Below, piece after piece: positions 41,049 through 41,286 of a DNA stretch of 57,529 nucleotides. Each line of letters opens with the position of its first letter. The stretch's first letter is position 1. The notes under the pieces are model-generated. The model did no database searches and had not been told where the DNA came from. It was given only the letters and a program-made list of their open reading frames with translations. The position numbers were made by a program, and so were the translations under genes. This DNA is from Escherichia coli (GTDB lineage Bacteria; Pseudomonadota; Gammaproteobacteria; Enterobacterales; Enterobacteriaceae). The DNA lies in NCBI RefSeq assembly GCF_003334355.1, contig NZ_QOWP01000025.1, one strand, 5' to 3'.

Positions 41049-41095
41049 AGCCCATCCTTTGTTATCAACTTGTTATTTGCGTTGATAAAGACAAA

Positions 41096-41111
41096 GCAAG
41101 GGGTGTGCCAC
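41096..41111 (-). promoter_or_regulatory. Sigma-54 (-24/-12) promoter of prpBCDE: TGGCAC-N5-TTGC on the minus strand
   Basis: Reverse complement of 41096-41111 reads GTGGCACACCCCTTGC, about 48 nt upstream of the prpB ATG; prpR next door encodes a sigma-54 activator. Confidence 0.8.
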
Positions 41112-41189
41112 AATTGCCTTAATAAAATTAAATGTTTAATTTCAATTTGTTAGAGATAAAGTCATGAACTAATCCGCAAATATGCGTTT

Positions 41190-41255
41190 CAGTTAACGTT
41201 TCAGGCAATGTTTCACCGCGTTTCATTGCAACAATTATGAAACAAGACTAAACCC
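41190..41255. promoter_or_regulatory. Candidate enhancer (PrpR binding) palindromes GTTTCAT-N10-ATGAAAC upstream of the sigma-54 promoter
   Basis: Inverted repeat cgtttcattgcaacaattatgaaacaag about 100-150 bp upstream of the -24/-12 element. Confidence 0.45.
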
Positions 41256-41286
41256 AATATTCGGTTTCTTAACTTTGCGGTGCGCT

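Follow-up and report, generated by a model that had tools for sequence, protein, structure and literature searches.

The closest described counterparts of the locus analyzed here are the prp control regions of Salmonella and Escherichia coli K-12. Both have divergent prpR and prpBCDE, a sigma-54 promoter ~48-50 nt before prpB, an AT-rich linker, and GTTTCA/TGAAAC sites for the activator PrpR 100-160 bp upstream. The core of the distal palindrome is identical to that of Salmonella, and K-12 shows no difference from the present spacer. In Salmonella, the orthologous promoter TGGCATAGCCTTTGCTTT is bound by sigma-54, and prpBCDE expression is 45-fold sigma-54-dependent. According to reviews, prpBCDE requires PrpR, sigma-54, IHF, 2-methylcitrate and cAMP-CRP, and the two divergent promoters share a single CRP site, which overlaps the operator for PrpR. 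The IHF requirement is genetic and known only for Salmonella. The published support comprises sigma-54 occupancy in E. coli, CRP dependence, and, in Salmonella, PrpR, sigma-54, IHF and the 2-methylcitrate signal.

Three other well-described pairs of promoter and activator, glnAp2/NtrC, nifH/NifA and pspA/PspF, rely on IHF-assisted looping and resemble prp in the fixed spacing of the GG and GC doublets, in an AAA+ activator positioned ~100-150 bp upstream, and in bendable AT-rich DNA. PrpR differs from their activators in that its PrpR_N domain senses 2-methylcitrate, rather than phosphorylation. The binding sites differ as well: these systems have two long dyads, whereas prp has short hexamers that vary in number, orientation and spacing.

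The divergent prp control region

The window (the whole 57.5-kb stretch of DNA that was analyzed) is E. coli chromosome. It carries prpB followed by prpC, prpD and prpE, with codBA, cyn, lac and mhp farther out. The interval singled out in the preliminary description coincides exactly with the spacer between prpB and prpR (Table 1). Not one base of the spacer differs from positions 348444-348681 of E. coli K-12 MG1655 (NC_000913.3), and published K-12 results therefore apply directly here. The region is the K-12 prp control region itself, beyond mere membership of a family, and as such is already known.

The regulator is encoded at full length. Pfam domains, taken from a 100%-identical protein, are PrpR_N (PF06506), Sigma54_activat (PF00158), AAA_lid_14 (PF25601) and HTH_8 (PF02954). 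Among the AAA+ motifs are a Walker A sequence, GETGTGKE, and the loop GAFTGS, a variant of GAFTGA. The features by which a bacterial enhancer-binding protein is recognized are all present: besides its sensor domain, the protein has a GAFTGA-type loop within an AAA+ domain for sigma-54 activation, and it ends in a helix-turn-helix.

For comparison, orthologous spacers were drawn, from the matches listed, from E. albertii, E. marmotae, four Citrobacter, Kluyvera, Photorhabdus, several Burkholderiales and one Xanthomonas. The published 18-nt promoter sequence led to the Salmonella enterica spacer, which an exact match of PrpB confirmed. Related species are non-independent samples, and the shuffle statistics given below overstate significance. 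Within E. coli, 19 of the 238 spacer columns vary among four of the most divergent alleles. Eleven of these 19 lie in the AT-rich linker (41111-41185), and none falls in the hexamers, the -24/-12 consensus positions, the palindrome spacer or the conserved leader block.

We consider it very probable (roughly 0.93) that the E. coli genes for propionate breakdown (the 2-methylcitrate cycle) are controlled divergently from this region, which operates as a sigma-54/PrpR switch. This assessment draws on gene order, K-12 identity, the unique promoter motif, ChIP-seq and genomic SELEX data, the sigma-54-bound Salmonella orthologue, the PrpR domains, the hexamer cluster, conservation, the lack of polymorphism in these elements and the requirements summarized in reviews. 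In the known mechanism, which is also the best supported, sigma-54 RNA polymerase sits at 41096-41110 as a closed complex that is unable to start alone, and the divergently encoded PrpR binds a series of GTTTCA/TGAAAC half-sites at an upstream distance of 100-160 bp. 2-Methylcitrate, formed from propionate via PrpE and PrpC, loads PrpR, leading to ATP hydrolysis that opens the promoter. The AT-rich DNA between the sites is bent, with IHF helping, so that PrpR can reach the polymerase, and the additional requirement for cAMP-CRP imposes catabolite repression. Transcription would then begin near 41084 and read prpBCDE. Which hexamers PrpR uses in E. coli, where IHF binds, where transcription starts and which promoter serves prpR are inferred here.

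Table 1. Features of the prpB-prpR spacer and its flanks (window coordinates; leader positions are relative to the predicted prpB start)
Feature	Position	Strand	Sequence or description	Basis or remark
prpB, methylisocitrate lyase	40158-41048	minus	leads prpBCDE	annotation
prpB-prpR intergenic spacer	41049-41286		238 bp	
prpB Shine-Dalgarno	41055-41059		AAGGA	
Conserved leader block	41059-41076	plus (antisense to prpB)	TTGTTATCAACTTGTTAT; TGTTA-N6-TGTTA, 11-bp register; +9..+26	ArcA-box match
Leader inverted repeat	41062-41088	minus	TTATCAAC-N11-GTTGATAA; -4..+23	perfect 8-bp arms
Predicted prpB transcription start	41084	minus	36-nt leader	converted from the prediction of Bonocora et al.
Sigma-54 (-24/-12) promoter of prpBCDE	41096-41110	minus	TGGCACACCCCTTGC = TGGCAC-ACCCC-TTGC, then T	unique exact match
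Candidate IHF bending site	41140-41152	plus	TTTCAATTTGTTA plus A/T tract	predicted; weak, one mismatch to WATCAANNNNTTR
PrpR upstream activating sequence	41186-41243		five GTTTCA/TGAAAC hexamers: 41186, 41198, 41210, 41220, and inverted at 41238	half-site match; predicted contacts
Candidate sigma-70 promoter of prpR	41226-41254	plus	-35 TTGCAA (41226-41231), 17-bp spacer, -10 TAAACC (41249-41254)	predicted
Second ArcA-box match	41228-41245	minus	TTGTTTCATAATTGTTGC	16.2 bits
prpR, sigma-54 enhancer-binding activator	41287-42873	plus	528 aa, full length	annotation and Pfam

Promoter, activator sites and accessory factors

The sequence TGGCACACCCCTTGCT (41095-41110, minus strand) fits the consensus TGGCAC-N5-TTGC(A/T), with a distance of exactly 10 bp between its GG and GC doublets. 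The GG doublet lies at about -25/-24 (41108-41109) and the GC doublet at -13/-12 (41096-41097). TGGCAC-N5-TTGC occurs once as an exact match in the window, against 0.21 expected by chance, while sites with one mismatch are at chance level (8 versus 6.8 expected). The form TGGCA[C/T]-N5-TTGCT is invariant in 10 enteric taxa, and TGGCA[C/T]-N5-TTGC is present in all orthologues with prpB downstream, including those of Photorhabdus, Burkholderiales and Xanthomonas. In K-12, the sigma-54 ChIP-seq peak OS01 (FAT 17) is centered at 347850 (U00096.2), over the 17-mer GTGGCACACCCCTTGCT upstream of prpB (Bonocora et al. 2015, PMC4591121). This center corresponds to window position 41104, and GTGGCACACCCCTTGCT is identical here. 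RpoN holoenzyme also selects the prp spacer in vitro, as a genomic SELEX peak (PMC8743547).

Bonocora et al. predicted a start 19 bp past the motif center and 36 nt before prpB, and EcoCyc listed the prpB promoter as ‘predicted’ at the time of their study (PMC4591121). In the sources read, no experimentally mapped E. coli prpB start was found; rpoN dependence of prpBCDE is described there for Salmonella (Palacios 2000, as cited in later papers) and was not found for E. coli. Between 40950 and 41400, no sigma-70-type promoter was detected on either strand at 9 of 12 consensus matches, and a terminator scan was also empty. The candidate prpR promoter falls below this threshold; its Salmonella counterpart is TTGCAA-17-TAAAAC.

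The upstream hexamers are half-sites of CGTTTCATGAAACG, the PrpR enhancer consensus given in PMC4987338 (Table 1, after Palacios and Escalante-Semerena 2004). Of the 36 hexamers in the window, five occur within these 58 bp, whereas no more than 3 fell within 60 bp in any of 200 dinucleotide shuffles. The array spans -102 to -159 from the predicted start, with the layout F-133, R-115, R-105, R-93, R-81 relative to the T of TGGCA. GTTTCAT-N10-ATGAAAC is present in one copy (41220-41243), 110-133 bp upstream of the -24 element, and the GTTTCA copies at 41186, 41198 and 41210 (plus strand) are direct repeats.

Conservation of these sites is uneven. Across 10 enteric sequences neither the distal palindrome nor the TGTTGCA of its spacer varies, and the proximal TGAAACG is likewise invariant in 10 enteric taxa. 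The contiguous 14-mer CGTTTCATGAAACG is present at the proximal site in Salmonella and Citrobacter, whereas the three Escherichia species lack it and have CATTGCCTGAAACG, which retains the right half of CGTTTCATGAAACG only. E. coli and E. marmotae carry two additional direct copies of TGAAAC, spaced by 10-12 bp, and E. albertii has one of the two. The Escherichia PrpR enhancer may have been remodeled, with two dyads giving way to a series of direct half-sites. Photorhabdus and Burkholderiales have other arrangements of the same hexamer beside the sigma-54 element. Given these differing arrangements, the recognized unit would be YGTTTCA(T), with flexible number, orientation and spacing. Since exact CGTTTCATGAAACG is absent from Escherichia, the PrpR contacts in E. 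coli are predicted ones.

The preliminary description had presented this stretch as the expected architecture of a PrpR/sigma-54 operon, and the K-12-identical spacer, sigma-54 ChIP-seq and PrpR half-sites agree. Its minus-strand TGGCAC-N5-TTGC element is indeed the unique exact match and underlies the K-12 peak, and the distance of about 48 nt to prpB is exact (48 nt from the C of the -12 GC, 41096, to the A of the prpB ATG, 41048). The proposed PrpR enhancer candidates about 100-150 bp upstream are likewise supported, by the consensus half-sites and by clustering beyond chance. The sequence GTTTCAT-N10-ATGAAAC is there as described, but as one palindrome rather than several, the other copies being direct repeats.

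For DNA bending, the candidate IHF site TTTCAATTTGTTA is centered at about -62, inside the AT-rich 41111-41185. E. albertii, E. marmotae and one divergent E. coli allele retain the positions that define the consensus, and the linker as a whole is unalignable between genera. The Salmonella spacer has no IHF match at one mismatch or fewer anywhere. A scan of the spacers with the CRP consensus TGTGA-N6-TCACA gave no positionally conserved match at 7 or more of 10 core positions; the sole E. coli match at this level overlaps the prpR start codon. We also observed that the single perfect IHF consensus of the spacer, in the prpB leader, falls on the wrong side of the promoter for looping.

The prpB leader

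The leader contains the most conserved block of the spacer, ATCAAC ... TAACAAGTTGATAACAA in the prpB orientation. Between Escherichia on the one hand and Salmonella and Citrobacter on the other, the leader sequence differs except for TGTTA-N6-TGTTA. Four readings of this stretch were weighed: an RNA hairpin, an IHF site, a docking site for Hfq or a small RNA, and an ArcA box.

The inverted repeat noted earlier in the leader, for which the preliminary description offered no reading, exists and its arms are perfect, but it lies 7 nt from where it had been placed, at 41062-41088 instead of 41069-41095. It starts 7 nt past the -12 element and straddles the predicted start. Read as a 5'-terminal RNA hairpin that would stabilize prpBCDE mRNA or modulate its translation, TTATCAAC-N11-GTTGATAA has in its favor the 8-bp arms, their conservation in Escherichia, Citrobacter and Kluyvera (to which the repeat is restricted, with loops of 10-12 nt), and a folding energy of -6.8 kcal/mol (z -6.4 for the isolated element) if transcription starts at or upstream of 41088. 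RNA from the predicted start at 41084, however, would include just 4 nt of the 5' arm, and the hairpin fails to form in it (minimum free energy -2.4 kcal/mol, z -0.28). The consensus fold of ten taxa reaches -1.42 kcal/mol with an unfavorable covariation term and no compensatory pairs, 4 of 6 pairs are broken in Salmonella, and the Salmonella leader folds no better than shuffles. In 13% of spacer shuffles a perfect inverted repeat with arms of 8 bp or more turns up, and repeats of this size are unremarkable in so AT-rich a spacer. With the 5' arm mostly upstream of the predicted start, no covariation and disruption in Salmonella, we reject a conserved 5'-UTR hairpin; the chance that this reading is right appears very small.

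That IHF acts on prpBCDE through TATCAACTTGTTA (41063-41075, plus strand) is unlikely, given the loss of the site in Salmonella and its position past the transcription start. It is a perfect match to WATCAANNNNTTR, one of four in the window, and of 8 sequences from Escherichia, Citrobacter and Kluyvera, 7 retain it. Salmonella, in which prpBCDE has a genetic requirement for IHF, is where the match is missing. Bending downstream of the start cannot bring the activator to the polymerase, and the consensus match comes free with the TGTTA-N6-TGTTA repeat.

A post-transcriptional role is more doubtful still. The distal face of Hfq prefers (ARN)n, and the leader UAACAA and (AAN)n tracts, as AAU-AAC-AAG and AAC-AAA triplets just 5' of the Shine-Dalgarno in E. 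coli and as AAU-AAC-AAU in Salmonella, could be imagined to dock Hfq or a small RNA. No Rfam family matches the spacer, however, the literature search found no small RNA for it, and such a motif would not need the exact conserved 11-bp register. Among the hairpin, IHF and ArcA readings of the TGTTA-N6-TGTTA block, a putative ArcA box is the best supported.

Candidate ArcA boxes and their significance

Park et al. 2013 (PMC3798270) list 128 sites in their Table S3, and an ArcA-box matrix that we rebuilt from 115 of them matches the published scores within ~0.6 bit. It recovers the known mhpA box (21071-21088) at 19.8 bits. The window holds three sites of at least 15 bits, namely the mhpA box and two in the prp spacer, both of which have TGTTA-type repeats at 11-bp spacing.

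The leader block scores 16.1 bits, a value reached by 2 of 2000 shuffles of the E. coli leader. In 10 enteric taxa the box keeps a fixed offset, +20..+37 after the -12 C, and scores 12.4-19.3 bits. The Salmonella box, ATGTTAGTAAATTGTTAT/C, scores 18.2-19.3 bits despite changes to the inter-repeat bases, to the inverted repeat and to the IHF match. The second box scores 13.5-16.5 bits in all enteric orthologues. It overlaps the invariant spacer of the palindrome as well as the PrpR half-site on its distal side and the candidate -35 of prpR. The leader box is not polymorphic in the E. coli alleles. A possible third ArcA repeat, GTTGAT (41081-41086), was considered and rejected because it does not keep the 11-bp register with the second repeat: the two are 9 bp apart in E. 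coli, 10 bp in Citrobacter, and 8 bp in both E. albertii and E. marmotae.

So, are these blocks operators for ArcA? They share with the ArcA-P operators of icdA, mhpA and lldP the two repeats in an 11-bp register and scores near the published mean of ~15.6 bits (PMC3798270). They also share the target, a carbon-oxidation pathway, and prpR responds to ArcA: it is up 2.9-fold in an arcA mutant (Table S5), and the intergenic region upstream of prpR has, according to Park et al., a site scoring 15 bits or more (PMC3798270). Their expression table does not list prpBCDE, which is uninduced in the medium used. In anaerobic Salmonella, propionate alone induces prpR, while prpB and prpC also need nitrate (Shelton et al. 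2022), which fits a respiration-sensitive block at the prpB promoter. A direct study of ArcA at prpB was not found in the literature search.

Several observations weigh against this reading. Park et al. place prpR among the operons without ArcA ChIP enrichment and show no peak at prp (PMC3798270), and the blocks are filed here as ArcA candidates, not as operators or findings, because this occupancy test by others saw none in vivo. The upstream box may be mimicry, since the PrpR half-site GTTTCA resembles an ArcA repeat. Photorhabdus leaders have weaker ArcA matches in the same place (reached by 164 and 21 of 2000 shuffles), weak against an AT-rich background. The absence of such a box from Burkholderiales and Xanthomonas leaders speaks for the reading, but this negative control is confounded by GC content. 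ArcA repression is documented for sigma-70 promoters, where Park et al. argue that it usually works by occlusion (PMC3798270); the candidate leader box occupies +9..+26 of a sigma-54 promoter, not sigma-70 -35/-10 elements. The need for nitrate, too, might be purely metabolic, through the supply of 2-methylcitrate.

On balance, we regard it as possible, at somewhat less than even odds, that 41059-41076 and 41228-41245 are ArcA-P operators, forming an extra layer on the main sigma-54/PrpR mechanism and not replacing it. Under reducing or anaerobic non-respiring conditions, ArcA-P would then block prpBCDE just downstream of the sigma-54 promoter and occlude both the prpR promoter and a PrpR site.

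The sigma-54/PrpR switch is textbook material, and its confirmation adds nothing new. Added here are the corrected coordinates of the leader repeat, the reduction of the enhancer palindromes to a single one, the Escherichia-specific dyad loss and the rejection of the hairpin. In addition, the two best ArcA-box matches besides the known mhpA box both lie in the prp spacer and are conserved, an observation partly anticipated by the site that Park et al. predicted upstream of prpR (PMC3798270).

Should the ArcA reading prove true, the redox state of the quinone pool would directly veto propionate catabolism, at both the regulator and the operon, and would thereby shut off a pathway that needs respiration. 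It would also be unusual in that a response regulator would repress a sigma-54 promoter while bound downstream of it, and would provide a mechanism for the joint requirement of prpBCDE for nitrate and propionate in anaerobic Salmonella. The prp promoter is used in biotechnology, in the pPro propionate-inducible vectors and in propionate biosensors. In the gut, the metabolite propionate restrains enteric pathogens, and its detoxification by E. coli and Salmonella depends on respiration. An ArcA veto on prpR and prpBCDE would, if true, explain this link to respiration and would affect prp biosensors in the anaerobic gut.

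Repeats between prpB and prpC

The intergenic region that separates prpB from prpC in this strain contains REP-type palindromic repeats, which appear as sub-threshold matches to the Rfam family naRNA4 (RF02564) on both strands. Because the equivalent spacer is shorter in Kluyvera, Citrobacter and E. marmotae (36-162 bp vs 346 bp here), these repeats look like an insertion within the operon in E. coli, as judged from comparative sequence.

Features of the prp region and of the mhpA control site (window coordinates)
Feature	Position	Detail
prpB-prpC spacer	39812-40157	346 bp
naRNA4 (RF02564) matches, sub-threshold	40000-40071 and 40093-40167	both strands; Rfam
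Near-perfect palindrome AAACCCAATATT/AATATTCGGTTT	41250-41267	20-37 bp upstream of the prpR start codon
prpR	41287-42873	
PrpR sigma-54 contact loop	~42175-42192	residues ~297-302
mhpA ArcA box TTGTTAAAAACATGTAAA	21071-21088	19.8 bits
mhpA	19454-21118	annotation of this strain

PrpR and the integrity of its gene

PrpR, the sigma-54 activator of prpBCDE, carries GAFTGS rather than the canonical GAFTGA in its sigma-54 contact loop. In the protein collection, numerous PrpR sequences of E. coli (clusters P0075-P0120) are shortened to ~423-457 aa, ~80% of length, which suggests either that prpR is often truncated in natural strains or that the assemblies are fragmentary. In strain SCPM-O-B-9504 (NZ_CP144930.1, locus L209), an IS1-flanked rearrangement breaks the prpB-prpR spacer at the equivalent of window position ~41088, about at the predicted prpB start, and prpR persists only as an N-terminal pseudogene.

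The same collection, clustered at 90% identity, groups Salmonella PrpB (295 aa) with PrpC (389 aa, 2-methylcitrate synthase) under a PrpC representative (P0121-P0135); this joint cluster looks like an artefact of clustering, not biology. Elsewhere in the window, at 5578-6812, an IS1A element adjoins tauA, with a truncated PIG-L deacetylase pseudogene beside it.

ArcA-like matches and PrpR half-sites

The published ArcA box of mhpA served as the positive control for the ArcA scan. It was recovered as the best ArcA match of the window and lies inside the first codons of mhpA as annotated in this strain. In Photorhabdus caribbeanensis, the prpB leader contains a GTTTCA hexamer, the form of a PrpR half-site, 29 nt past the start of the -24 element, and this hexamer sits inside ATGAAACATATTTGTTAA, the best ArcA-like match at that locus. 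At the level of sequence, this leader shows that PrpR half-sites and ArcA repeats are able to mimic each other.

Candidate regulatory sites of the prpB-prpR spacer across genera

The palindrome that precedes prpR is kept in Escherichia and partly in Citrobacter and Kluyvera, and is not found in Salmonella. It could serve as an operator, or belong to the promoter or leader of prpR.

PrpR sites were compared between the E. coli array (41186-41243) and loci from other genomes (L003, L004, L082-L084, L092 and L113). The contiguous PrpR dyad CGTTTCATGAAACG, the form of the published enhancer consensus, occurs in Salmonella and Citrobacter and is absent from the three Escherichia species compared, which have one or two additional direct TGAAAC copies in its place. 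Published output of the prpB promoter system is ~threefold weaker for E. coli than for Salmonella, and this difference in PrpR sites might relate to the weaker output.
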